Shown here: positions 9,447 to 44,013 of the stretch, piece after piece
How positions within the stretch are numbered: the stretch's first letter is position 1
Layout: the number at the start of each line of letters is the position of its first letter
Assembly (NCBI GenBank): GCA_947086925.1
Contig: CAMUAL010000001.1
Coordinates: 1 to 64,000 of the forward strand
DNA length: 64,000 bases
Direction of reading: 5' to 3'
Source of the DNA: an uncultured Clostridia bacterium
GTDB taxonomy: Bacteria; Bacillota; Clostridia; Christensenellales; Pumilibacteraceae
Position numbers and translations under genes: made by a program
Notes under the pieces: model-generated
Seen by the model: only the letters and a program-made list of their open reading frames with translations
Told to the model about the DNA's origin: nothing
Databases searched by the model: none

Positions 9447-12155
9447 ATGGGACTTATCAGTTTTATCACGGGAAGCGACAATCGCAAGCATCTTAAAAAG
9501 CTCGAAACCATTGCGCTTAAAGTGGAGGAGTACGACGAGGCGTACCGCAAACTTACCGACGACGAGCTTAAAGCCAAAACCGACGAATTTAAAAAGCGTT
9601 TAAAAGAAAACTACGAAACGCTCGACGACATACTTCCCGAGGCGTTCGCAACGGTGCGCGAGGCAAGCGCGCGCGTGCTCGGCATGCGTCACTTTCACGT
9701 TCAGTTGCTCGGCGGCATAACTCTGCATCAGGGGCGTATTGCCGAGATGCGCACGGGCGAAGGTAAAACTTTGGTTTCCACGCTTCCCGCATACTTAAAC
9801 GCACTTACGGGCGAAGGCGTTCACATTGTAACGGTAAATGATTATCTTGCAAAGCGCGACGCCGAGTGGATGGGCAAAGTTCACCGCTTTTTGGGTCTTA
9901 CCGTGGGCGTTGCCGTATCGGGCATGACTCCCGAGGCAAAACGCGCCGCATACAACTGCGACATTACGTATGCAACGAACAACGAGCTCGGATTCGATTA
10001 CCTCAGAGACAACATGGTTATTTACAAAGAAGAAATGGTGCAGCGCAAACTCAGCTATGCCATAATCGACGAGGTTGACTCGATTTTAATCGACGAGGCG
10101 CGCACTCCGCTTATTATATCGGGCAGAGGAGAAAAATCGAGCGAGCTTTACATTAAAGCGAATCAGTTCGTTAAGCGCGAGGTTAAAGAGGACGATTACG
10201 AATACGACGAAAAGAAAAAGGGCATAAACCTTACCGAGTCGGGCACGGAAAAAGCCGAAATGTTTTTCGGAATAGACAACCTTGCCGATGTGGAAAACAG
10301 CGATATTGCGCACTATGTAAATAACGCGCTCCGCGCACACAAGATTATGAAGCGCGACCAAGACTACATTGTAAGCGACGGCGAAGTCGTTATAGTAGAC
10401 GAATTTACGGGTCGCCTTATGGTTGGGCGCAGGTACAGCGACGGATTACATCAGGCAATCGAGGCGAAAGAAAACGTAACTATTCGCAACGAGAACAAAA
10501 CTCTCGCAACAATCACGTTTCAGAACTACTTCCGTCTTTACGACAAGCTCGGCGGCATGACGGGTACCGCCAAAACCGAAGAATCCGAGTTCAAAGGCAT
10601 TTACGGCTTAGACGTTGTTGAGATTCCCACCAATGTTCCGAGTAAGCGCGTAGACGAAAACGACGTAATTTACACTACCGTAAACGGCAAATTAAAAGCG
10701 GTTATCGAGGATATAAAAGAGTGCACTCAGCGCGGACAACCCGTGCTTGTGGGTACGACAAACGTAGAAAAGAGCGAGGAGCTGGCGCGCCTTCTCAAAG
10801 GTCAGAGAATAGAGCACAGCGTGCTTAACGCAAAGAACCATGAAAAAGAGGCGGAGATAATAGCTCAGGCGGGCAGAGTCGGCGCGGTTACAATCGCAAC
10901 CAACATGGCAGGCCGCGGTACCGATATTCTGCTTGGCGGCAATCCCGAATATCTTGCGAAAAAGCGCATGCGCGACCTTGGCGTAGACGAAAAGCTTATA
11001 AGCGCGGCAACCGCTTACTTCAATACCGAAGACCCCGATATTCTTGCCGCCCGCGCTCAGTACAAAAAATTCTATGATGAATACAAAGCCGAAGCGGATG
11101 TCGAAAAAGAAAAAGTTATCGCGGTGGGCGGTTTGCGCATCATAGGCACCGAGCGTCACGAATCGCGCCGAATCGACAATCAGTTGCGCGGTCGTGCGGG
11201 ACGTCAGGGCGATATGGGTTCGAGTATCTTCTATCTTAGCATGGAAGACGATTTGTTAAGACTGTTCGGCGGCGACAGAATGAAACGCATAGCCGAAATA
11301 TTCGGAGGCGACGAGGATACGCCTTTCAGCATGAAGCTTCTTACAAAGCAGATTGCAAACGCACAGCGCAACGTAGAGGGCAGAAACTACTCTATACGTA
11401 AGCAAGTACTCGAATACGACAACGTAATGAACACTCAGCGTACGATAATTTATCAGGAACGCAATAAGGTGCTGTCGGGCGAGAGCGTACATGAACAAAT
11501 CGACACGATGATGCACGAGCAAATCGAAAAGATTGTCGATATGTACACCGACCCCAAGGTTGATTGGAACGATTGGGATTACGAAAATCTAAACAAAGAA
11601 ATCGAGCGCAAGCTTATTCCCGGCGACACAACTTTCCTCACGGAAGACCGCATGGAAAAATGGGCTCTCGAAGAAATAAAAGAGCAGATTTACACCGCCA
11701 TGCAAACCTATTATACTCAGAAAATCGACAACGCAAAAGAGCTCGGAGTCGATTTTGAGGAAATAGAGCGCGTTATACTTCTTAAAGTGGTAGACAAGCA
11801 GTGGATGGACCATATCGACTCTATGGATGCGTTGCGTCGCGGAATAGGGCTTAAAGCGTACGGTCAGCAAGACCCCGTTATTGCTTACAAGCAAGAGGGA
11901 TTTGCTATGTTCGACGATATGATAGACCGTATCCACGAGGACACGGTTGCGCTCCTTATGCGCGTAAACGTAGAGCGCGCACCCAAGCGCGAGGGGCAGA
12001 ACCTCGACCTTGTTGTATCGAGCGGCGGAAGCAAACAGGCAAAAGCTCCCTCGGTCAATCGCAGTGAAAACAAAGACGTAGGGCGCAACGACCTTTGCCC
12101 TTGCGGAAGCGGCAAAAAGTATAAAAACTGTTGTTGGGACAAAGACCATAAGTAA
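9447..12155 (+). CDS. secA: preprotein translocase ATPase SecA
   Basis: Start at ATG 9447 (MGLISFITG, RBS aaggag 8 nt upstream) rather than track start 9405 which lies in the repeat; DEAD-motor, PPXD, HSD and C-terminal zinc finger CPCGSGKKYKNCC all present. Confidence 0.95.
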   Translation: MGLISFITGSDNRKHLKKLETIALKVEEYDEAYRKLTDDELKAKTDEFKKRLKENYETLDDILPEAFATVREASARVLGMRHFHVQLLGGITLHQGRIAEMRTGEGKTLVSTLPAYLNALTGEGVHIVTVNDYLAKRDAEWMGKVHRFLGLTVGVAVSGMTPEAKRAAYNCDITYATNNELGFDYLRDNMVIYKEEMVQRKLSYAIIDEVDSILIDEARTPLIISGRGEKSSELYIKANQFVKREVKEDDYEYDEKKKGINLTESGTEKAEMFFGIDNLADVENSDIAHYVNNALRAHKIMKRDQDYIVSDGEVVIVDEFTGRLMVGRRYSDGLHQAIEAKENVTIRNENKTLATITFQNYFRLYDKLGGMTGTAKTEESEFKGIYGLDVVEIPTNVPSKRVDENDVIYTTVNGKLKAVIEDIKECTQRGQPVLVGTTNVEKSEELARLLKGQRIEHSVLNAKNHEKEAEIIAQAGRVGAVTIATNMAGRGTDILLGGNPEYLAKKRMRDLGVDEKLISAATAYFNTEDPDILAARAQYKKFYDEYKAEADVEKEKVIAVGGLRIIGTERHESRRIDNQLRGRAGRQGDMGSSIFYLSMEDDLLRLFGGDRMKRIAEIFGGDEDTPFSMKLLTKQIANAQRNVEGRNYSIRKQVLEYDNVMNTQRTIIYQERNKVLSGESVHEQIDTMMHEQIEKIVDMYTDPKVDWNDWDYENLNKEIERKLIPGDTTFLTEDRMEKWALEEIKEQIYTAMQTYYTQKIDNAKELGVDFEEIERVILLKVVDKQWMDHIDSMDALRRGIGLKAYGQQDPVIAYKQEGFAMFDDMIDRIHEDTVALLMRVNVERAPKREGQNLDLVVSSGGSKQAKAPSVNRSENKDVGRNDLCPCGSGKKYKNCCWDKDHK

Positions 12156-12170
12156 AATCACGGTAAAAAA

Positions 12171-13268
12171 ATGCTGATATTAGACGAACAGAAACAGCGC
12201 ATAAAGACGCTTAAAAACAAATTCGACGGTTGCTGCGAAGCATTTAACGAAGGTGAGCTTAGCGATAAGCTCGCCTCTTTAAACGAGGCTCAGCAAGACC
12301 CGGAGCTTTACAAAGATTTAAAGCGCGCGCAAAGTATAAATTCGGAAGCGAAATACATTTCGTCGCTTTTATCCGACCTTAAATCCAAACGGAGTAAAAT
12401 AGACGATATTGCGGAATTTGTTTCGGCGGCAGAAAGCGAATCGGACGAGGAGCTTATTGCGGAAATCGATTCCGCGCTTTCGGAAATCGAAAACGAGGTT
12501 GAAACTCTGCACCTTAAAACACTGCTTAAAGGAGAGTACGACCATTACAACGCAATACTTACGCTTCATGCGGGCGCGGGCGGTACCGAGGCGCAAGATT
12601 GGACGCAGATGCTTTACCGCATGTATAAAATGTATTGCGACAAAAACGGTTTTACCTACGAAGAACTCGACTACTTGCCGGGCGACGAAGCGGGAATAAA
12701 GAGCGTTACGTTCAGAGTAATAGGCACAAACGCTTACGGCTATCTCAAAGCCGAAAAGGGAGTGCACCGTCTTGTGCGCATTTCGCCGTTCGACAGTAAC
12801 GCCCGCCGACACACAAGCTTTGCGAGTTTGGAAGTTATGCCCGAAATCGAGAACGACGAGAGCGTGAAAATAAATCCGGAAGATTTAAGAATCGATACTT
12901 ACCGTAGCGGCGGCGCGGGCGGTCAGCACATAAACAAAACCGACTCGGCGGTGCGCATAACTCATATTCCCACGGGAATAGTAGTGCAGTGTCAAAACGA
13001 GCGCAGTCAGATTCAGAATCGCGAAACCGCAATGAAAATGTTGCTCGGCAAGCTTGTGGAACTGCGCGAGCGCGAACTCGAAGAAAAAGCAAACGCCATT
13101 AAGGGCGAAATGAAAAAAATCGAGTGGGGCAGTCAAATACGTTCATACGTATTTCAGCCTTACACTATGGTTAAAGACCACCGCACGGGCTACGAGAAAC
13201 CCGACGTTCAGGCGGTCATGGACGGCGACATTGCGGAGTTTATATTCGACTATTTACGCAAATCTTAA
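12171..13268 (+). CDS. prfB: peptide chain release factor 2
   Basis: 365 aa, GGQ motif ([12 protein letters not shown]), SPF tripeptide (RISPFDS); single continuous ORF, no CUU-UGA-C frameshift site detected. Confidence 0.9.
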
Positions 13269-13325
13269 AGGCGTCGTATAAGGTCGCATATAGCGGCTAA
13301 TTCGTTGCATTGGCTATTGTGTATT

Positions 13326-13351
13326 GTCATTCCGAGCGTAGTCGAGGAATC
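13326..13351 (+). repeat. dispersed hairpin repeat unit (family A, AT-stem variant gtcattccgagcgtagtcgaggaatc)
   Basis: Stem attcc/ggaat around conserved loop gagcgtagtcga; same family as copies at 33148, 37248, 39450, 39553 and inverted copies at 33108, 39486, 54769. Confidence 0.8.
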
Positions 13352-13485
13352 TTATCTTTAATCTAATTCAATGCCCCTTTGGGGCGGTGGAACACAAGGG
13401 GGGGGAATTCCAATTATTCTCTGCCTTGTATTTTCCGTGTCATTGGCGGGTGATTTTTTTAAGGAAATCGGGTGGCGGAAGCAAT

Positions 13486-13514
13486 TTGACTTTATCGGCT
13501 CGGAGTGTTATACT
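13486..13514 (+). promoter_or_regulatory. promoter TTGACT-17-TATACT for tsaD (near-leaderless)
   Basis: -35 13486-13491, -10 13509-13514; predicted TSS ~13521, ATG at 13523. Confidence 0.45.
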
Positions 13515-13522
13515 ACGCCTAT

Positions 13523-14596
13523 ATGTATATTGAACTCGCACAACAACAATTCGATAAAATAAAGAACAATCCCGACGCGGTTATTTTGGGCATAGAAAGC
13601 TCATGCGACGAAACTGCGGCGGCGGTTGTGCGCGGCGGAAGAATTATGCTGAGTAACGTAATCGCCTCGCAAATCGAAATACATAAGCGTTTCGGCGGCG
13701 TAGTGCCTGAGGTTGCAAGCCGCAATCATACGCTTGCTTTGCCAGATATAATCGACGAAGCTTTAAAACAGGCAAACGTGAGCGCAAGCGATTTGAGCGC
13801 GGTTGCCGTAACTTACGGCGCGGGACTTATCGGCGCACTGCTTGTGGGAGTGGCGGCGGCAAAGTCGTATGCCTATGCAATAAACAAGCCGCTTATAGCC
13901 GTAAATCATATAGAGGCGCATGTTTCGGCAAACTATATTTCGCACCCGGATTTAAAGCCGCCCTTTTGCGCGCTTGTGGCGAGCGGCGGACACACTCTTT
14001 TGCTGAATGCGACCGATTACAATAAGTACGCAATGCTCGGCGGTACGCTCGACGACGCGCTCGGCGAAGCGTTCGATAAAGTCGCGCGCGTTTTGGGACT
14101 TCCGTACCCCGGAGGACCGAACGTAGAAAAGCTTGCGCACGAAGGCTCGGCAAATATCCGACTATATAAGCACCCCAAGGGTGTGCGCGAAGATTTGTCG
14201 CTTTCGTACTCCGGACTTAAAACCGCAGTGGTAAATTATGTGAACACGTTAAGACAAAAGGGGGAGAAAATCCCCGTTGCCGATATATGCGCCTCGTTTA
14301 CAAGCGAGTCGTTGTCGCTTTTGGCTAAAACCGCGTCGGAGGCAATGAAGCGTACGGGATACAGCCGACTTGTGCTTGCGGGCGGGGTTGCCTCTAACGG
14401 CGATTTGCGCAGACTTCTTTGTGCCGAGGGCGAAAAAAACGGTTTTACAGTGAGTTTCCCGCCGCACGTGCTTTGCACCGACAACGCCGCCATGGTTGCG
14501 TCACGCGCTTACTTCATGGCGCAAGACGGGTTGGGACTTGCCGATTTGAGCCTTAACGCAAAATCCCACATACCTTTCGAGGAAAAAATATTATGA
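13523..14596 (+). CDS. tsaD: tRNA N6-adenosine threonylcarbamoyltransferase TsaD (Kae1/Gcp family)
   Basis: ILGIESSCDETAAAVV N-terminus, metal-binding His pair region (HIEAHVSANY), conserved C-terminal CTDNAAM; ATG 13523 chosen because track GTG start 13505 overlaps the -10. Confidence 0.85.
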   Translation: MYIELAQQQFDKIKNNPDAVILGIESSCDETAAAVVRGGRIMLSNVIASQIEIHKRFGGVVPEVASRNHTLALPDIIDEALKQANVSASDLSAVAVTYGAGLIGALLVGVAAAKSYAYAINKPLIAVNHIEAHVSANYISHPDLKPPFCALVASGGHTLLLNATDYNKYAMLGGTLDDALGEAFDKVARVLGLPYPGGPNVEKLAHEGSANIRLYKHPKGVREDLSLSYSGLKTAVVNYVNTLRQKGEKIPVADICASFTSESLSLLAKTASEAMKRTGYSRLVLAGGVASNGDLRRLLCAEGEKNGFTVSFPPHVLCTDNAAMVASRAYFMAQDGLGLADLSLNAKSHIPFEEKIL

Positions 14597-21991: not shown

Positions 21992-22717
21992 ATGATTAAA
22001 ATTGCGGTGGTAGATGATAAGCAGTCCTATGTAACTCTTATAAGCGAGTACATAGAACAGTTTTCGCGTGACAACGGAATTACCTGCGAAGTAAAAGGTT
22101 TTGCGGGGGGGGGCACGCTTGTAAATAATTACCGTTGCGATTACGACGCGGTTTTTCTCGACATAGAAATGCCCGGTATCGACGGCATGAGTCTTGCGCA
22201 AAATCTGCGCGAGAAAGACAGCGAGCTTATAATAGTTTTTATAACTCATCTCATGAAAATGGCGGTAAAGGGCTACGAGGTAAACGCATTTTCGTTTTTG
22301 TTAAAACCTGTAAGCTACGCCGACTTTGCGGCGGTTATGAAAAAGATTCACGAGCGCGTGCGCGCGAAATCCGAGCTTAAAAGCAAAAGCATTTTCGTAA
22401 ACGTGAAAACGGGCGTGAAAAAGCTGATAATAGACGATATTTATTATCTCGAAAGCCGCGGGCATTACGTAAACTTTCATACCGCAGACGGCACGTATCA
22501 AACTCTCGGAAAGCTCTGCGACTATGTGTCGGCTTTGGAGCCGCTCGATTTTTGTTCGTCGAGCAAGTCGTTTCTTGTGAATTTAAGGTACGTAAACGAA
22601 ATCCGCGCCACCGAAGTTCTTGTTGCAAACGGAGTTGCAACGCTTACGCGTTCGCACAAACACGAATTTAAAGATAAGTTCACAACGTACATAAATTCTT
22701 CTCGCGCACGGGTGTGA
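21992..22717 (+). CDS. LytTR-family response regulator (REC + LytTR DNA-binding domain)
   Basis: REC domain with phospho-acceptor region (AVFLDIEMPGIDG), C-terminal LytTR domain (ESRGHYVNFHTADGTYQ...); RBS gagg. Confidence 0.85.
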   Translation: MIKIAVVDDKQSYVTLISEYIEQFSRDNGITCEVKGFAGGGTLVNNYRCDYDAVFLDIEMPGIDGMSLAQNLREKDSELIIVFITHLMKMAVKGYEVNAFSFLLKPVSYADFAAVMKKIHERVRAKSELKSKSIFVNVKTGVKKLIIDDIYYLESRGHYVNFHTADGTYQTLGKLCDYVSALEPLDFCSSSKSFLVNLRYVNEIRATEVLVANGVATLTRSHKHEFKDKFTTYINSSRARV

Positions 22718-32929: not shown

Positions 32930-33107
32930 CAAGGCATATACGGGGCATCTCGACACTGCGTGTTCGTTGCCAATCGGTTATATATATGTAAAATACACTC
33001 TCGCGCGGGCAACGCAACCGTTGTGTCAATCCGCAACCCGTCTCCGTCGCCGTAAAAAACCCCTGCCTTAGACGGGGGGGGGATTAAAAGGGGCGGGAAT
33101 TAAAAAG

Positions 33108-37247: not shown

Positions 37248-37321
37248 GTCATTCCGAGCGCAGTCGAGGAATCTTAAAGATTTCTCCGCTAAGTGACTGT
37301 CGTCGCTTAGGTCGAAATGAC
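37248..37321. repeat. family-A hairpin repeat pair (forward unit 37248-37273; interrupted inverted unit 37283-37321 with nested hairpin insertion)
   Basis: gtcattccgagcgcagtcgaggaatc then tctccgcta[agtgactgtcgtcgcttag]gtcgaaatgac; also G-rich mini repeats cccgcgccgagggcagggg (37069-37087) and tttcccgccgagggcagggggaaa (37105-37127) upstream. Confidence 0.75.
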
Positions 37322-37364
37322 ATGCCGATTATCAAACAAATAAAATAAGGAGTTTTAAAAAATC

Positions 37365-37742
37365 ATGGCAGATTTAAATAAAATGTTAGAAGAAGTTAAG
37401 GGTATGACCGTTGTTGAACTCAACGAGTTCGTTAAAATGCTCGAAGAAGAATTCGGCGTATCGGCAGCCGCTATGGCTGTTGCGGCGCCCGCGGCAGGCG
37501 GAGCGGCGGCAGCTCCCGCAGAGGAAGAAAAGACCGAGTTCAACCTTGCGCTCAAAGAAGTAGGCGCAAACAAGATTGCGGTTATCAAAGTTGTTCGCGA
37601 AATCACCGGCTTGGGACTCAGCGAAGCAAAGGCTTTGGTAGACGGCGCGCCTTCCACCGTAAAGGAAGCTATGCCCAAGGAAGCAGCCGAAGAAGCTCTC
37701 AAAAAGTTGCAGGAAGCAGGCGCAACCGCCGAACTCAAATAA
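37365..37742 (+). CDS. rplL: 50S ribosomal protein L7/L12
   Basis: Ala-rich hinge, C-terminal domain ending ...AGATAELK. Confidence 0.95.
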
Positions 37743-37770
37743 TTTCTTTAATCGGTATAATAAAACAAGA

Positions 37771-37806
37771 AGACACGCTGTGGATAAACACGGCGTGTTT
37801 TTTGTT
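37771..37806 (+). terminator. rho-independent terminator after rplL
   Basis: Stem acacgctgtg/cacggcgtgt + tttttt. Confidence 0.8.
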
Positions 37807-37898
37807 GTACAGCATAACCGAAAATCGGTTGTATTTGCTTGACAAAAATTCGGGGGGGGGTACACTTGAATAAATAAAGCAAAAGAGGAAGATGGGCT

Positions 37899-39485
37899 GT
37901 GGATAACGGTCGCAAAAAATTCAGAGAAAAACACCCGACCTTATGTGAAATAGCGCGTTTTATCATAGTCGGCGGAATAGCCACGCTTGTAGATATGTTT
38001 GTAATGGGATTGGTGCTTTATGCCTTTAAGCCGAGCCTGTACCCGAAGTTCTATAACATATTTTACGGCGGCGGACAACCGAGCGCTTCGGCAACCGTGG
38101 TGGGAACGGGTAGCGGATTTATATCGGGGCTTATAGTAAATTACGTACTTTCGATATTCTTTGTGTTCGAGCATAAGGGCAAAAGTAAGTCGGCGGTGGG
38201 CTTTTTGGTGTTTACGCTTTTGTCGGCTGTGGGACTTGCCATTCACTTGCTCGGCATGTATCTCGGGTACACCGTACTCGGCATAAACGAGTGGATAGTT
38301 AAAATAGTACTTACGCTTATAGTTCTTGTGTACAATTATGTTTCCAAACGGCTATTGCTGTTTAAAAAATCAAAAGCCGCCGATGCAAAAGCGGATAACG
38401 CGTCTACGGAGAAAACGTCCGAATCGCAAGAAGAACTGTATTTGAGAATAGGCAAGCACGACGACAAAAAAATTAAAATAAGCATTGTAGTGCCTTGTTA
38501 TAACGAAGAAGCTTGCATCGAAAAATATTATAACGCCATGCAAGAAGTTGTGTCCGCTCTCCCCGCCGACTTCGAATACGTATTCGTAGACGACGGCAGT
38601 CGCGACGGTACTCTGCGGTTGATTCGCAAGCTTGCGGAGTCGGACGGCAGAGTGAGATATATCTCGTTTTCGCGTAACTTCGGAAAAGAGGCGGCAATGC
38701 TTGCGGGGCTTAAAGCGGCGAGCGGCGATTTGGTGGGGCTTATGGACGCGGATTTGCAAGACCCGCCCGAAATGCTTAAAGATATGTTCTACGGAATAGC
38801 AGACGAGGGGTACGATTGCGTTTCGTGTCGCAGAACCGACCGCAAGGGCGAAAGTAAAATACGCAGTGCGTTTGCGCGATTGTTTTACAAACTTATAAAC
38901 CGAATGAGCGACGCCGAGATAATGGACGGTGCGCGCGATTACCGCCTTATGTCGCGCAGAATGGTAAACGCCGTTTTGGATTTAACCGAGCGCGAGCGTT
39001 TCAGCAAAGGAATATTCGGCTGGGTGGGATTTAAAACCAAGTGGCTCGAATACAATAATACCGAGCGCGTGGCGGGCACGACAAAGTGGAGCTTTAAAAA
39101 GCTTACCAAATACGCGATAGGCGGAATAGAGGATTTTTCGACCGCACCTCTCAAATTTAACTTTGTAATGTTCGGATTATGTTTTTTTGCGGCGGTATTT
39201 TTTGCCGTGTTCGATATAGCATGGGCATGCACATCGCACAAAGTCGGCATTGTACTCACTTTAATGCCGATACTTTTATTTGTCGCGTCATTGCTGTTTG
39301 CGGGCATAGGGATACTCGGCGAATACGTTAAAAAGATTTTTTACGAGGTAAAGGCGCGGCCCGTTTATTTGGTGCGCGAAACCGAGCAATCGGCAAAAGC
39401 GGCTAAGGCGAACGACAAGCCGAACACAGTCACCCCGCCACCGAGTAATGTCACCCCGAGCGAAGCCGAGGGGTCTATCGAATAA
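37899..39485 (+). CDS. GtrA-like flippase domain fused to GT2 (GtrB/CsbB/DPM1-like) polyprenol-phosphate glycosyltransferase
   Basis: GTG start with RBS agagga; N-term GtrA-like 4-TM domain (IARFIIVGGIATLVDM...), GT2 domain (IVVPCYNEE..., DDGSRDGT, DAD), two C-terminal TM helices; last ~20 codons lie inside family-A repeats (NVTPSEAEGSIE). Confidence 0.8.
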   Translation: MDNGRKKFREKHPTLCEIARFIIVGGIATLVDMFVMGLVLYAFKPSLYPKFYNIFYGGGQPSASATVVGTGSGFISGLIVNYVLSIFFVFEHKGKSKSAVGFLVFTLLSAVGLAIHLLGMYLGYTVLGINEWIVKIVLTLIVLVYNYVSKRLLLFKKSKAADAKADNASTEKTSESQEELYLRIGKHDDKKIKISIVVPCYNEEACIEKYYNAMQEVVSALPADFEYVFVDDGSRDGTLRLIRKLAESDGRVRYISFSRNFGKEAAMLAGLKAASGDLVGLMDADLQDPPEMLKDMFYGIADEGYDCVSCRRTDRKGESKIRSAFARLFYKLINRMSDAEIMDGARDYRLMSRRMVNAVLDLTERERFSKGIFGWVGFKTKWLEYNNTERVAGTTKWSFKKLTKYAIGGIEDFSTAPLKFNFVMFGLCFFAAVFFAVFDIAWACTSHKVGIVLTLMPILLFVASLLFAGIGILGEYVKKIFYEVKARPVYLVRETEQSAKAAKANDKPNTVTPPPSNVTPSEAEGSIE

Positions 39486-39578
39486 GACCTCTCCGCTACG
39501 GTCGAGGTGACAAGGGTGGCATTTACGGTCGAGGTGACAAATCGGCATCATAGTCACCCCGAGCGAAGCCGAGGGGTC
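39429..39578. repeat. cluster of family-A hairpin repeat units: forward 39450-39475, inverted 39486-39511, partial 39525-39538, forward 39553-39578, half-copy 39429-39445
   Basis: gtcaccccgagcgaagccgaggggtc x2, gacctctccgctacggtcgaggtgac, acggtcgaggtgac read directly; adjacent forward/inverted units can pair as a long imperfect hairpin. Confidence 0.85.
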
Positions 39579-39606
39579 TGTTTAAGAATAATAAAAGGGA
39601 AGAAAA

Positions 39607-42255
39607 ATGTTCTCGTTTTTTACTTGTGACGAAGAAAAGAAATCCAAAACCGACGCTCTTAAAAGATGGGGCGTCTTTTTGGGGATTGCGATATTCGCGC
39701 TGTTTTTGTATGTTTTGCCGTTTATGATACGAGGCAATTATCTTGCTTGGGGCGGCACGGGTGCATATTCGGACGGAATAGCTCAACACGCCACGTTTTT
39801 GGAATATATGTTCAAACACGGTTTATTTTCGGGCTTGGGCGAGTACGATTATAACATAGGCTTGGGGGCGGACTATGCGGTAGCGTTTGCGTATTATACC
39901 ATGTTCGACCCCGTAAACTTTTTGCTGTACATATTGCCGAGAAGTAACTTTTTACTGTCGTATTCCGTTCTTGCGTGCATAAGATTTTTAATATGCGCGA
40001 TTTGCATGTATGTGTATTTACGCAGTCATAAGGTGCGTCAGACGCTTTCGGTGGTATTTTCGGTGGCTTACATGCTGTCGGGTTATATAATGTTCACGTT
40101 CACCCGTCATCCGTGCCTAACCGCGGGGGCAATGTATTTGCCGCTTATAACGCTAGGACTCGAAAAGGCGATAGATAAAAACAATCCGTTTATCTTAATA
40201 GCGTTTACGTTTTTGACTACGATAAGCTCGTTTTACATGGCATACATGGTAACGATTTATGCGGTTCTGTATGCAGTATTATATTACGTCAATAAAGTCC
40301 ATGCGCAAGGTGAAAAGATAAAGGCAAGAAAATTCGCGGCGGTATTTTTCCGCACGGCGGGATATTATTTAATAGGATTATTGATTGCGTCGTTTATGCT
40401 GTTTCCCGTGGCATACGGGTACATTACAGGTGCAAGAGGCGACAGTAAAGGTCTTGCAATATTCTCTCCGTTTGATTTACTGAGTATATTCGTAAGTTTT
40501 TTTGCACCGTATGCGGGCAAATGTTATACCGCCGTTATGTTAAATATAGTTGCGGTGCTGCTCGGATTCGCCGCGTTTGCGGCATGTCCGCGCGCGGTAA
40601 TGAGCAAGATGACGGTTATTTTAACTGTTTGTCTGTTTATTCCCGTTGCGGGATACGTAATGAATATATTCAATTATGCAAACAACCGCTACACGTATAT
40701 GTTTTCGTTTTGTGCTTACGCGCTTATTGCGCAGTTTCTCAACGGTTTAAACAGCGGCGAGATTAAGAAAAAGGAGCGTAGCATTATAATAAAAGGAGCG
40801 GTTACGGTGTGCGTAATCGCTGTGAATTTGGTTGTATGGTGGCTGATTTATTCTATTGTGGTTAAAGCTCACGCGGTTTTCGGTGCGCTTATTGCAACTG
40901 CGGCGGTGGCTGTTACCGCATCTTCGGCATTTGCGCTGTACGGATTTTACAAAACCGATATTTCCGGCGACGTCATATTCAAAAAGATAGGGTATGGCGC
41001 TTTGATTTGGGCGTTCGTAGGATTCGTTTTGGTGCAGGCGGTGATATTCGGCGCCGTTTATTCTTCGCAATTCAACGATAACGGCAAACGGTACAGTGCG
41101 TATGTAAGCGCGCCGGAAACTTATGCGGCGACGACGAAAACGGATGATTTCGTTCGTTTGGATACCTATGCCGACGCTTGCAACCGACCGCTTAACAACG
41201 GCTATAAAGGTACGGTTATTTATAACAGTATGTACGGCGAGTCCGTTTCGGAATTTTTATCGGCAAATATGCTCTACACGTTTTCGCCCACGCTCGGCAT
41301 GTCGGGTCTTAACGGGCGCACGGCGTTGCAGGCTTTGCTTTGCACTAAGTATTATTATGCTACTAAAACGGTCGTTACTCCGACGGGATTTAACGAATCG
41401 GAAGATATAAGCGGATTGTATATAGCCGACGATTACGTGCGTTTCGGCACGGTATTTGAAAATACTGTCAGCGAGGAATTTTTATATTCCATACCCGAGA
41501 TTGAACGTCAGTATCTGATGCTTAGCGGCGTGGTTATCGAAAACGGCAAAATAACGGAATATACTCCGCTTGTTGCCAAAAAGGAATCTACGGAAAAAGC
41601 GTTTACTTTGTATCCCGAAAACACAAAGAATATTAACATAGACGGTGCGCTCGGAGCTGATATTTATTTAAAAATTCGATTGGCGGAATTGCCGACAAAG
41701 AAAACCGTAGTTACGGTGAGTTGCGGCGAGGAGTCGTTCGAAATCGAGGTCGCGCCCAAAGGGCATCAGATGTATACGGGGCAAACCGAGTGGCTTATGA
41801 AGCTCGACGGACGTTCGGACAATGTGAGTATAAGCATAAAGAACGGCATGGAACTGAAATTCGAAGAAACGGAATTTTACGAGGTAAGCGAAGCCGCAAT
41901 AATGCAACTGATACGCGCGGCGTCGGCGCGGGCGCATTTAACCGATACCGAATTTAATTCTCGCGGATTCGTCGGTAAAATAAATTCAAGCGGCGGCACA
42001 ATGCTTATTCAGTTGCCGTACTCCAAAGGTTGGAAAGCCGAGGTTGACGGAGAGCGTGCGGAAGTGAAAAAAGCCGATTGTGGGCTTATGGCAATAGAGG
42101 TATCGGGCGGCGAACACGATGTGAAATTCACGTACCGCACGCCGTGGCTCAATGCCGGAATAGCCGTAACCGCGGTTGCCGCGGCCGTATGCGCAGGCTT
42201 AATCGTTGCGACGACGGTAATAAAGCTTAGGCGGCGCGAGCGTAAGAACGGTTAA
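39607..42255 (+). CDS. YfhO-family polytopic membrane glycosyltransferase-like protein
   Basis: 882 aa; N-terminal motif SDGIAQHATFLEY resembles the YfhO D-x-x-x-Q-H-Y/FP signature; ~13 TM helices then large extracytoplasmic domain and terminal TM; genomic pairing with a CsbB/GtrB-type GT2. Confidence 0.7.
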   Translation: MFSFFTCDEEKKSKTDALKRWGVFLGIAIFALFLYVLPFMIRGNYLAWGGTGAYSDGIAQHATFLEYMFKHGLFSGLGEYDYNIGLGADYAVAFAYYTMFDPVNFLLYILPRSNFLLSYSVLACIRFLICAICMYVYLRSHKVRQTLSVVFSVAYMLSGYIMFTFTRHPCLTAGAMYLPLITLGLEKAIDKNNPFILIAFTFLTTISSFYMAYMVTIYAVLYAVLYYVNKVHAQGEKIKARKFAAVFFRTAGYYLIGLLIASFMLFPVAYGYITGARGDSKGLAIFSPFDLLSIFVSFFAPYAGKCYTAVMLNIVAVLLGFAAFAACPRAVMSKMTVILTVCLFIPVAGYVMNIFNYANNRYTYMFSFCAYALIAQFLNGLNSGEIKKKERSIIIKGAVTVCVIAVNLVVWWLIYSIVVKAHAVFGALIATAAVAVTASSAFALYGFYKTDISGDVIFKKIGYGALIWAFVGFVLVQAVIFGAVYSSQFNDNGKRYSAYVSAPETYAATTKTDDFVRLDTYADACNRPLNNGYKGTVIYNSMYGESVSEFLSANMLYTFSPTLGMSGLNGRTALQALLCTKYYYATKTVVTPTGFNESEDISGLYIADDYVRFGTVFENTVSEEFLYSIPEIERQYLMLSGVVIENGKITEYTPLVAKKESTEKAFTLYPENTKNINIDGALGADIYLKIRLAELPTKKTVVTVSCGEESFEIEVAPKGHQMYTGQTEWLMKLDGRSDNVSISIKNGMELKFEETEFYEVSEAAIMQLIRAASARAHLTDTEFNSRGFVGKINSSGGTMLIQLPYSKGWKAEVDGERAEVKKADCGLMAIEVSGGEHDVKFTYRTPWLNAGIAVTAVAAAVCAGLIVATTVIKLRRRERKNG

Positions 42256-42344
42256 TTTTATCGTTTTACCGCAGTAAAATAATTGAAGAATCAATGAGGA
42301 TATGGTATAATTGTCGGGTAAAGCATAAGAAAAGGCAATTATAA

Positions 42345-43637
42345 ATGGGTTCGATAGAGGTTCTCAAAATTATAATATCGGTTTTGGCGGGTATAGGCAC
42401 GGCGCTTACCGTAATGAAAGCGTACCGTTATTTATACTTGCTCGGCTGGTTTCATAAAACAAAGTTTAAGGCTACCGAAAACAAACACAAGTACGGAATA
42501 TGTATAGCGGCGCGCAACGAAGAAAAAGTAATCCGTAACCTTTTGGAAAGTATAGACGCGCAAGATTACGATTTGAGTCTGTTGACGGTTTTTGTCGTGG
42601 CGGATAACTGTACCGACGGCACGGCGGACGAAGTGCGTCGGTTTATGCAGACAAGCAATGTGAAAATAGTTTTATATGAACACAACAATCCCGACGAGCG
42701 CACAAAAGGCTATGCGCTACGGTATTTGTTCGATTGCATAAAAGCCGACGGCGGAACCGATTTATACGACGGTTATTTTATTTTCGACGCCGATAACGTA
42801 TTGGCAAAAGACTATGTGTCGCGCATGAACGAAGCATTCGATGCCGGTTACGATGCAGTTACTTCTTTCCGAAACTCCAAAAATACGGGGCAAAATTGGA
42901 TTTCTTTTTCCTATGCGATACATTGGCTCGGCACGTGTTTAAACGAGCATCGCGGAAAAAATATGTTGCATTTGTCGTGTCGTTTGCAAGGAACGGGCTT
43001 GCTGTTTCACAATAAATATGTGAGCAACGGTTGGAATTACGTGACGTTCACCGAAGACCGCGATTTTTGCTCGGATATCGTTGTCAAAGGCGGCAGGGTG
43101 GTGTATTGCGAAGATGCGAAGTTTTACGATGAACAGCCGTATAAACTGAAAGTCGCACTGCGACAACGCGTGCGGTGGGCAAAAGGACACTTGCAGTCGT
43201 CGGTTACAAACGGACCGAAACTCATTAAAAACACATTTAAGTTCAATAGAAACAGCTTGCGTTCTTACGATATTTTTTGGTTGAATTTCCCCGCGCCCAT
43301 AGAGAGCATTATCCGAAAGCTAATCTCGTGGGCGTTGCAAATCTGCGTCGGCATATTGGTAGGTACGTGGTGCGGCGTTATAATAGGAATATTGACGGGA
43401 ATAGGTTGGGGATACCTTAAACATTGGATTCAGTACATGGCAACCGCCGTTTTCGTATATGTGTACTATCATAAGCACATACAAAAGATTCCGTTTTTCA
43501 AATTGTGCTTTTATGTTCTTATGAACCCTTTCTTTACCAAAATAGGCACATGGTCGAATTACGTAGCTCTTTTTAAAAAAGTGGAATGGAAAGAAATACC
43601 GCACGATTACACCGTAGACTTAAACAAATTACCGTAA
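42345..43637 (+). CDS. membrane-embedded processive-type GT2 glycosyltransferase (D,D,D,QxxRW)
   Basis: N-terminal TM, GT2 catalytic core (ARNEEKVI, VADNCTDGT, FDADN, QRVRWAKGH), 3-4 C-terminal TM helices. Confidence 0.75.
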   Translation: MGSIEVLKIIISVLAGIGTALTVMKAYRYLYLLGWFHKTKFKATENKHKYGICIAARNEEKVIRNLLESIDAQDYDLSLLTVFVVADNCTDGTADEVRRFMQTSNVKIVLYEHNNPDERTKGYALRYLFDCIKADGGTDLYDGYFIFDADNVLAKDYVSRMNEAFDAGYDAVTSFRNSKNTGQNWISFSYAIHWLGTCLNEHRGKNMLHLSCRLQGTGLLFHNKYVSNGWNYVTFTEDRDFCSDIVVKGGRVVYCEDAKFYDEQPYKLKVALRQRVRWAKGHLQSSVTNGPKLIKNTFKFNRNSLRSYDIFWLNFPAPIESIIRKLISWALQICVGILVGTWCGVIIGILTGIGWGYLKHWIQYMATAVFVYVYYHKHIQKIPFFKLCFYVLMNPFFTKIGTWSNYVALFKKVEWKEIPHDYTVDLNKLP

Positions 43638-43664
43638 AAAGATTAAAAATTATGTAAAAATTGT

Positions 43665-43726
43665 TTGACACAGTTGTAATTACTGTGATACAATGATAAG
43701 GCTGTGCGTCTGCGCAGCCCTTTTTT
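43665..43726 (+). promoter_or_regulatory. promoter-like TTGACA-17-ATACAAT immediately followed by GC hairpin + T6 (terminator 43700-43726)
   Basis: TTGACA 43665-43670, -10 43688-43694, stem ggctgtgcg/cgcagcc(c) 43700-43720, tttttt 43721-43726. Confidence 0.45.
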
Positions 43727-44013
43727 GACGAGAGATTAGGTGTGAAACCGAAGGTTACCTGCATAAAATTAGCGAGGTGCGGGAGAACTTCGGCGGACCG
43801 AGTGCGGCGAGGCATGCCGTGCGGCGAAGTGAGCGTCGAAAAAGAAAAACGCAAAAGGCTTGTGGGCGAACCGTCGGTTATAATCCGAAAGGCGCAAATA
43901 CTGCTTGAAACATTACGGCGGGTAAAACCGCTTATCGTTTTCGCAAAAAGTAGACCCGCCCGACTGCGTTGTAATTAGCTTCGCAAATGCTAAACGGAGG
44001 TAAAACAAAAATA
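43727..44013 (+). promoter_or_regulatory. S10 operon 5' leader region
   Basis: ~290-nt noncoding stretch upstream of rpsJ; track ORF 43742..43978 here is unlikely to be a real CDS. Confidence 0.4.

Follow-up and report, generated by a model that had tools for sequence, protein, structure and literature searches.

Background

Among three-component glycosylation systems (PMC8035078, PMC5836110, PMC7389260), the class closest to the one analysed here comprises CsbB/GtcA/YfhO of Bacillus subtilis and Staphylococcus aureus, in both of which N-acetylglucosamine (GlcNAc) is added to lipoteichoic acid (LTA), and of Listeria monocytogenes, where GlcNAc is added to wall teichoic acid (WTA), together with the GtrA/GtrB/GtrC systems of phages and Enterobacteria. 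We examined a stretch of 64,000 nucleotides (the window; contig CAMUAL010000001.1 of assembly GCA_947086925.1) from an uncultured Clostridia bacterium of the family Pumilibacteraceae, in which two adjacent genes, g1 (37899..39485, 528 aa) and g2 (39607..42255, 882 aa), probably specify a three-component extracytoplasmic (Gtr-type) glycosylation system in two polypeptides; window coordinates throughout refer to the + strand, on which the parts of the glycosylation locus lie. As in CsbB/GtcA/YfhO (PMC8035078), the window clusters a GtrB/CsbB-type synthase of undecaprenyl-phosphate (C55-P) sugars, a GtrA-family protein with four transmembrane (TM) helices and a polytopic YfhO glycosyltransferase of the GT-C class; unlike in CsbB/GtcA/YfhO, GtrA and the synthase form one polypeptide. 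The gtcA gene of the model organisms is often unlinked and common to several GT-A/GT-C pairs, whereas its counterpart in the window is linked and, indeed, fused. The system is of a known kind; its new part is the N-terminal GtrA joined to GtrB in one protein, and the literature searched contains no description of an N-terminal GtrA fusion to a family 2 glycosyltransferase (GT2) of the GtrB type.

Parts of this design recur elsewhere. The Pgf system of Streptococcus mutans (PgfS/PgfM1/PgfE/PgfM2) and the streptococcal GtrB/PgtC2 system resemble g1 and g2 in combining a GtrB-like GT2 with a YfhO-family GT-C; unlike Pgf, the locus has no epimerase, second YfhO or adhesin genes, and neither Pgf nor GtrB/PgtC2 has a GtrA fusion. 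The type-III dolichyl-phosphate mannose synthase (DPMS) of Pyrococcus furiosus (5MLZ, 9EP0) is, like g1, a GT2 polyprenyl-phosphate glycosyltransferase covalently joined to a GtrA-like four-helix membrane domain, which is why the Pfam family bears the name GtrA/DPMS; this enzyme has been proposed to flip its own product (PMC12992685).

Predicted components of the system

The first gene starts with GTG, 10 nt downstream of a GAGG ribosome-binding site. Pfam recognizes in its product both domains that a first-pass annotation of the window had named, GtrA_DPMS_TM (PF04138) at residues 20-155 (E 7.9e-14; 52.3 bits against a cutoff of 26.1) and Glycos_transf_2 at residues 195-358 (E 9.6e-36). Hydropathy predicts six TM helices, four of them ahead of a cytoplasmic linker and glycosyltransferase domain and two behind it, with both the N-terminus and the C-terminus in the cytoplasm. 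The N-terminal part (residues 20-155; 37956..38363) is a genuine GtrA: it has the small four-TM architecture of that component (helices within residues 22-144), is modelled with a predicted local distance difference test (pLDDT) score of mostly ~85-96, falling to ~67 at residues 91-100, and shares 48-76% identity with standalone Clostridia proteins of 140-240 aa (at least 120 clusters) that NCBI names "GtrA family protein". A low-complexity linker of 37 residues follows (156-192; 38364..38474), delimited by the frame check and the model; its pLDDT is below 50 at residues 164-172, and its coding sequence includes an A7 run (38465-38471).

The C-terminal two-thirds of g1 are a complete GtrB-type polyprenyl-phosphate glycosyltransferase (residues 193-495; 38475..39383), in which a GT-A domain is followed by juxtamembrane helices and, at the C-terminus, a TM hairpin (422-440, 449-467). 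By phmmer, the best match is GtrB of Synechocystis (5EKP; E ~1e-67 over residues 189-494), with ArnC second best; D283, D285, R311, D347 and R390 of g1 align with the key GtrB residues D94, D96, R122, D157 and R200 (PMC4728340), so that the DxD motif, the putative catalytic acid and the acceptor-site arginines accompany the TM hairpin. The AlphaFold model of g1 (mean pLDDT 84) matches the cryo-EM structure of GtrB 9NYC in Foldseek with an E value of 1.5e-23 and a TM-score of 0.81 on the target.

Domain order in DPMS is the reverse of that in g1: the GtrA-like domain of DPMS is C-terminal and is its only membrane anchor, with no separate GtrB hairpin, whereas g1 retains a complete GtrB, TM hairpin included, to whose N-terminus a disordered linker joins a bacterial GtrA. 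In sequence, the two align over the glycosyltransferase domain only (phmmer E 6.7e-14, residues 191-309; Foldseek TMq 0.35). Assignment of g1 to the type-III DPMS group was rejected on the N-terminal position of its GtrA domain and its separate GtrB TM hairpin.

The second gene encodes a YfhO-family GT-C glycosyltransferase, identified by its topology and by a Pfam match (PF09586) that extends over residues 25-855 of the protein and positions 4-835 of the 835-position profile (E 9.5e-90). Its predicted layout comprises a polytopic N-terminal half, an extracytoplasmic domain of ~365 aa (residues 485-849) and a C-terminal TM anchor. The DGIxQH motif that had been noticed at first pass is present as DGIAQH and belongs to a conserved SDG(I/T/V)xQH in the first external loop, between TM1 and TM2; its D, G, Q and H do not vary among six homologues, and we infer a catalytic role for the invariant Asp of SDGxxQH. 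The g2 protein thus has the polytopic form and the conserved acidic residue in the first external loop that characterize the GT-C of a Gtr-type system.

These homologies and conserved key residues suggest a pathway of three steps: the GtrB part of g1 would use a nucleotide sugar to glycosylate undecaprenyl phosphate at the cytoplasmic face of the membrane; the GtrA domain of g1 would take part in moving the C55-P-sugar to the outer face; and g2 would pass the sugar to an extracellular acceptor. Genetic linkage of the components extends across relatives, with yfhO adjoining gtrA/gtrB, whether fused or not, in 10 loci (L001, L082, L003, L004, L005, L008, L056, L081, L092 and L093). The two proteins diverge at different rates: YfhO is 45-53% identical in all pairs of relatives, in the membrane half and the external domain alike, whereas in the same relatives g1 is 70-81% and ribosomal proteins are 87-100% identical. 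YfhO is probably the fast-evolving specificity component of the system, and the contrast of conserved g1 and diverging g2 mirrors that of conserved gtrA/gtrB and a variable, type-specific gtr gene in Gtr systems (PMC3259042).

Fused and separate gtrA and gtrB genes in related loci

Related loci were collected from species-representative genomes and by locating the genes of homologous proteins. The fused or unfused state was called by a check of reading frame and stop codons, as tblastn matches over residues 6-500 by themselves also span adjacent genes: eight loci from the genome scan have such matches, and only L001, L002 and L003 among them contain an in-frame fusion. In-frame fusions are present in the window, in L081 (81% identical), which came from the protein look-up, and in L001/L082, L002/L085 and L003; they recur in independent assemblies (P0006 on 18 contigs, P0009 on 5 contigs). 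Separate, adjacent gtrA and gtrB genes are found in L004, L005, L008, L014, L056, L092 and L093; they overlap by 4 nt in L092, lie 38 nt apart in L093, and are parted by a stop codon, a 20-nt gap and a change of frame in L004. The unfused L004 is the closest relative of the window by ribosomal proteins (rpsJ 100%, rplC 96% and rplD 87% identical), and the fused L003 is 80% identical to the unfused L014. An extra GT2 paralogue (37% identical) is located between gtrA and the orthologous GT2 gene in L005 (10001-12506).

Synteny indicates that the fused state is a minority within the clade and not its standard arrangement. The first-pass annotation was right in this respect to call the fusion unusual, but a solved precedent for a GT2 joined to a GtrA-like domain exists, in reversed order, in type-III DPMS (PMC12992685). 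Among the matches listed, 11 clusters at 90% identity hold both domains across nearly the full query, and a GtrA-only search, which returned standalone proteins only, found at least 124 standalone GtrA clusters of the same subfamily at 90% identity; the resulting ratio of fused to standalone, 11:124, is approximate because two separate searches are combined in it. No fusion frequency follows from a search for the GtrA domain among 1.84 billion representatives, as it did not return the fused clade, which is presumably represented by other cluster members.

The linkers differ in length and sequence in every fused homologue and are of low complexity. Three of the fusions keep the old GT2 initiator methionine (…MKISIVVPCY), the position of which is occupied by ATT in the window (38478-38480). 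Neighbour-joining trees of either half of g1 mix fused and unfused states, and this interleaving on rough trees indicates that the fusion is a rare variant, repeatedly gained or lost. From these comparisons we conclude that a canonical gtrA-gtrB-yfhO operon appears to be the ancestral state and that fusion or fission has apparently occurred several times among close relatives. Fusion would proceed from such an operon once gtrA had lost its stop codon and gtrB its start codon, an easy change given that these genes abut or overlap and that both termini are cytoplasmic. This reconstruction is weakened by the trees, which are unbootstrapped and comprise 12 sequences from metagenome-assembled genomes, and by the exposure of any single fused or unfused call to assembly error in such genomes.

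The fusion might have no mechanistic meaning, if loss of a stop codon merely left two halves that act across a flexible linker as they do when separate. We consider this plausible without being probable. It agrees with the alternation of close relatives between the two states, with the small share of fused proteins, with the unconserved, low-complexity and poorly modelled linkers, and with the long disordered C-terminal tails that standalone GtrA proteins of the g1 subfamily already possess. It agrees less well with the persistence of fusions in at least 11 diverged clusters (59-81% identity), or with the loss of the internal methionine from g1 of the window, which leaves the GT2 part without a canonical start codon. 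The same subfamily is, moreover, fused to YfhO in P0228 (YfhO::GtrA, 1249 aa) and elsewhere to further polytopic proteins of large size: of the best 150 matches to the GtrA domain among the representatives, 23 are long fusions of other kinds, P0228 being one of them; in others (P0125-P0165) GtrA occupies the C-terminus of proteins of ~850-900 aa or the N-terminus of proteins of ~700-1000 aa. Pfam finds GtrA as the only confident domain in those large fusions that were scanned, two of which have a weak match to DUF6080. The GtrA subfamily of g1 so appears prone to fusion with different partners, and this variety suggests a general tendency of GtrA toward physical coupling with partner enzymes.

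The acceptor of the transferred sugar

A teichoic-acid-like polymer or a cell-wall polysaccharide is the most likely acceptor for g1 and g2, the alternative being Ser/Thr-rich surface proteins. The acceptor used by YfhO enzymes is LTA in Bacillus and Staphylococcus and WTA in Listeria (PMC8035078); YfhO-family enzymes of streptococci O-glycosylate Ser/Thr-rich proteins (PMC11092751). The first-pass annotation had seen in the GT2-YfhO pair the CsbB/YfhO logic by which Bacillus glycosylates teichoic acids: the logic holds in that the GT2 of g1 matches GtrB by sequence and by fold, but teichoic acid as the acceptor was overstated and is one option only.

Several observations weigh against a Gtr-type system of this kind. 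Neither g1 nor g2 has an equivalog-level match in NCBIfam, the best matches being PgfS (324 bits against a cutoff of 500), PgfM1 (89 against 1400) and PgfM2 (72 against 1500). No ltaS, tagO or tar genes were found in the window by tblastn with an LtaS-like protein or on Pfam maps. The fusion in L002/L085 is followed not by YfhO but by a 571-aa protein without a significant Pfam family (11917-13632).

Some of these observations would fit a protein O-glycosylation system like streptococcal GtrB/PgtC2 or PgfS/PgfM1 of S. mutans, with Ser/Thr-rich disordered regions of membrane or wall proteins as targets. The best NCBIfam matches are PgfS for the GT2 part of g1 and PgfM1/PgfM2 for g2, the experimental link between YfhO-family enzymes and protein glycosylation noted above (PMC11092751) points the same way, and the window is devoid of teichoic-acid genes. 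On the other hand, all Pgf scores fall far below the equivalog cutoffs, no adhesin or PgfE epimerase gene is adjacent (there is no epimerase open reading frame, ORF, between 37.7 and 44 kb), and the YfhO proteins of Bacillus, Staphylococcus and Listeria act on teichoic acids; sequence, in any case, cannot tell the acceptor. Protein O-glycosylation by g1 and g2 is therefore a tentative alternative that we regard as rather unlikely. Membership of the locus in the S. mutans Pgf group itself was rejected, on the scores and the missing epimerase.

A separate membrane glycosyltransferase downstream

The third gene, g3 (42345..43637), encodes a membrane-integrated GT2 synthase of 430 aa, recognized by Pfam and by a structure model with the fold of hyaluronan synthase (HAS) and BcsA. 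The D,D,D,QxxRW signature reported at first pass is present as D91, D148/D150 (DAD), T236/D238 (TED) and Q274-R275-x-R277-W278, all invariant in 45 homologues, among which E237 of TED is near-invariant. The model (pLDDT 92.8) has its best fold matches in XlHAS1 (E 6.8e-15, TMq 0.66), CvHAS and BcsA, and shows the GT-A domain packed on a TM bundle, which together with D, DxD, TED and Q(R/Q)xRW is typical of processive membrane GT2 enzymes. The g3 protein thus appears to be a HAS/cellulose-synthase-like, single-subunit and putatively processive synthase; it shares the invariant D, DxD, TED and QxxRW with hyaluronan synthase, BcsA, chitin synthase, NodC and PgaC but, unlike BcsA and chitin synthases, is much smaller and has neither a PilZ domain nor partner subunits.

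Members of the g3 family are widespread in Clostridia (more than 100 clusters at 50% identity or above) and occur in varied housekeeping contexts. A tblastn search with one LtaS-like protein had found few neighbours of g3 homologues, but unbiased clustering of the neighbours in 84 g3-family loci, drawn from the g3-homologue loci L094-L173 and L088-L091, revealed one dominant and recurrent partner, an LtaS-like membrane protein of the Sulfatase family (~650 aa, N-terminal TM). Its gene adjoins the g3 homologue in 52 of the 84 loci, in 24 groups at 85% identity or above and in several orientations. These associations suggest that the g3-type GT2 and the LtaS-like phosphotransferase form an uncharacterised pair in gut Firmicutes, and the g3 family may work with that phosphotransferase.

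We considered whether g3 might polymerise a surface glycan or glycolipid that g1 and g2 then decorate, as the description of a three-gene island in the first-pass annotation would imply. The three genes lie next to one another on one strand, enclosed by the same terminators, and the frequent position of g3 homologues beside LtaS-like genes is an LTA-type context, LTA being a known YfhO acceptor. However, none of the related gtrA/gtrB/yfhO loci examined contains g3; in one of them, L004, the S10 leader comes straight after yfhO, and relative to this locus g3 represents an insertion or deletion immediately before the S10 -10 box; none of the 84 g3-family loci contains a GtrB or YfhO relative; the housekeeping contexts of g3 homologues vary; and g3 is preceded by a promoter-like site of its own (42283..42311), with TTGAAG, a 17-nt spacer and an extended -10 TG-TATAAT, identified by consensus match (10 of 12 positions). 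A single pathway for the three genes is improbable on this evidence, and the three-gene unit does not stand: g3 is an accessory gene, probably with a promoter of its own, and its placement beside yfhO is specific to this genome.

Position of the locus between ribosomal operons

The ORF list of the window confirms the extents of g1, g2 and g3 that had been given at first pass, as well as their placement between the rplL terminator and the S10 operon: rplL ends at 37742 (37365-37742) and is followed by a hairpin and T-run, and rpsJ starts at 43987. Upstream of the module are nusG, rplK, rplA, an L10 leader (Rfam match), rplJ and rplL; downstream of g3 are rpsJ, rplC, rplD and the remaining S10/spc/alpha region. 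Solely the glycosylation genes (rplL to rpsJ, 37743-43986) part the rplKAJL cluster from the S10 operon. The ORF list of the window contains no ORF of the size of rpoB or rpoC, and rpsL, rpsG, fusA and tuf are not among the larger ORFs scanned in it.

Gene order around the module differs among relatives, being rplL, fusion, yfhO, g3, rpsJ in the window; rplL, yfhO, fusion in L081; and gtrA, gtrB, yfhO, rpsJ in L004. L081, with yfhO after rplL, and L004, with yfhO before rpsJ, each agree with the rplL/rpsJ layout of the window on one side. Following the module in L081 (5361-14917) are unannotated genes for products of 353, 110, 640 and 694 aa, a Fer4_12 protein and a 742-aa AAA_2 ATPase with weak PADLOC matches to PDC-M37B and DolB; PADLOC returned only generic AAA-ATPase matches for the genes downstream of the module in L081. 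This block could represent variable or defence-type DNA inserted at the same locus.

The rplL intrinsic terminator (37769..37805) begins 27 nt past the rplL stop codon and consists of a 14-bp stem (centroid fold) followed by a T-run, with a folding free energy (dG) of -22.9 kcal/mol (z -6.1; none of 200 shuffles folds as well). Beyond it lies a promoter-like site (37839..37866) composed of TTGACA, a 16-nt spacer and TACACT, with 10 of 12 consensus matches. In L081, where the first gene is yfhO, this site, the leader and the ribosome-binding site behind rplL are likewise conserved. The glycosylation operon is predicted to have its own promoter at this position, after the rplL terminator.

At the other end, the S10 operon is preceded by a promoter-like site (43665..43725) composed of TTGACA, an 18-nt spacer and TG-TACAAT, which overlaps a GC hairpin and T6 run. 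The hairpin and T6 (43700-43725; z -3.0) follow directly after the -10 box, at the start of the conserved S10 leader, and this hairpin is probably the terminator of the gene before it. Starting with the -10 region and the hairpin, the leader of ~270 nt (43700-43986) aligns with L004 (4160-4476, directly after yfhO) at a mean column identity of 79%, including an extended near-identical stretch. Rfam scans of the S10 leader and the inter-gene spacers found nothing above threshold.

The shared leaders on the rplL side and the S10 side, together with the varying gene order, indicate a stable chromosomal locus with internal rearrangement. The locus is a resident chromosomal feature of a genus-level lineage, and its origin by horizontal acquisition, as a mobile island placed between the two ribosomal operons, is very improbable: a normally conserved ribosomal neighbourhood is interrupted, the guanine-plus-cytosine (GC) content is slightly lower over g2 and g3 (0.43-0.46) and relatives differ in gene order and content, but there is no integrase or recombinase, no tRNA and no bounding direct or attachment-site repeat, GC skew is continuous with the flanks without a sharp change of composition, and the same rplL/rpsJ position is kept in L081 and L004 with promoter and leader conserved.

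Repeats and homopolymer tracts

The flanking repeats described in the first-pass annotation were not borne out: the sole non-trivial repeat is a dispersed palindromic element of ~60 nt, GTCAYYCCGAGCGMAGYCGAGGRRTC (also given as GTCAYYCCGAGCGMAGYCGAGGRRTCT…), which lies mostly in intergenic spacers and has copies between rplJ and rplL and between g1 and g2, with none at the borders. Its core occurs five times in the window (13332, 33154, 37254, 39456 and 39559; 0.01 expected), and full units are found, for example, at 39450-39512 and 37248-37340. As the element is dispersed and has copies elsewhere in the window, the repeats were rejected as boundaries of an island. A palindromic repeat cluster (39450..39588; dG -61.7 kcal/mol, z -3.9) fills most of the g1-g2 spacer, and its first copy provides g1 with its final 12 codons and its stop codon.

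A homopolymer of nine G residues (37852-37860) lies inside the 16-nt promoter spacer upstream of g1; the corresponding tract in L081 is interrupted (GGGGCGGG). A classic means of switching surface structures by phase variation is a homopolymer tract in a promoter spacer, and this G9 tract could be a candidate slipped-strand switch of the glycosylation operon. Further G8/G9 runs are present at 13398-13405, 22105-22113 and 33074-33082, all with G on the + strand and none with C; one of the G9 runs lies in the ORF of a LytTR response regulator (21992-22717). Three G9 runs are observed in the window, against ~0.2 expected by a rough estimate. The G8/G9 runs could be contingency loci or a sequencing artefact.

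Conclusions

Flippase activity has never been directly shown for any GtrA-family protein (PMC11127046, PMC7389260), which bears on how C55-P-sugars cross the membrane in widespread surface-modification systems. The recurring natural 1:1 fusion of GtrA and GtrB in gut Clostridia argues for a physical or functional coupling of the two, as do the fusions of the GtrA subfamily to YfhO and to other large proteins. GtrA-family proteins might be docking subunits that hand the C55-P-sugar directly from the synthase to the GT-C and not free flippases, a possibility that we raise tentatively. If it is true, GtrA::GtrB, YfhO::GtrA (P0228) and the large GtrA fusions would be "Rosetta-stone" evidence for a physical synthase-flippase-transferase relay, and g1 would by itself be both synthase and flippase in a bacterium, as has been suggested for the archaeal type-III DPMS. 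The g1 protein is also a convenient single-chain construct for structural and proteoliposome studies.

For the uncultured gut lineage that carries it, the system represents an ordinary, chromosomally resident surface-glycosylation operon, in which the variable YfhO probably contributes to the diversity of surface glycans and thus to recognition by phage or host.

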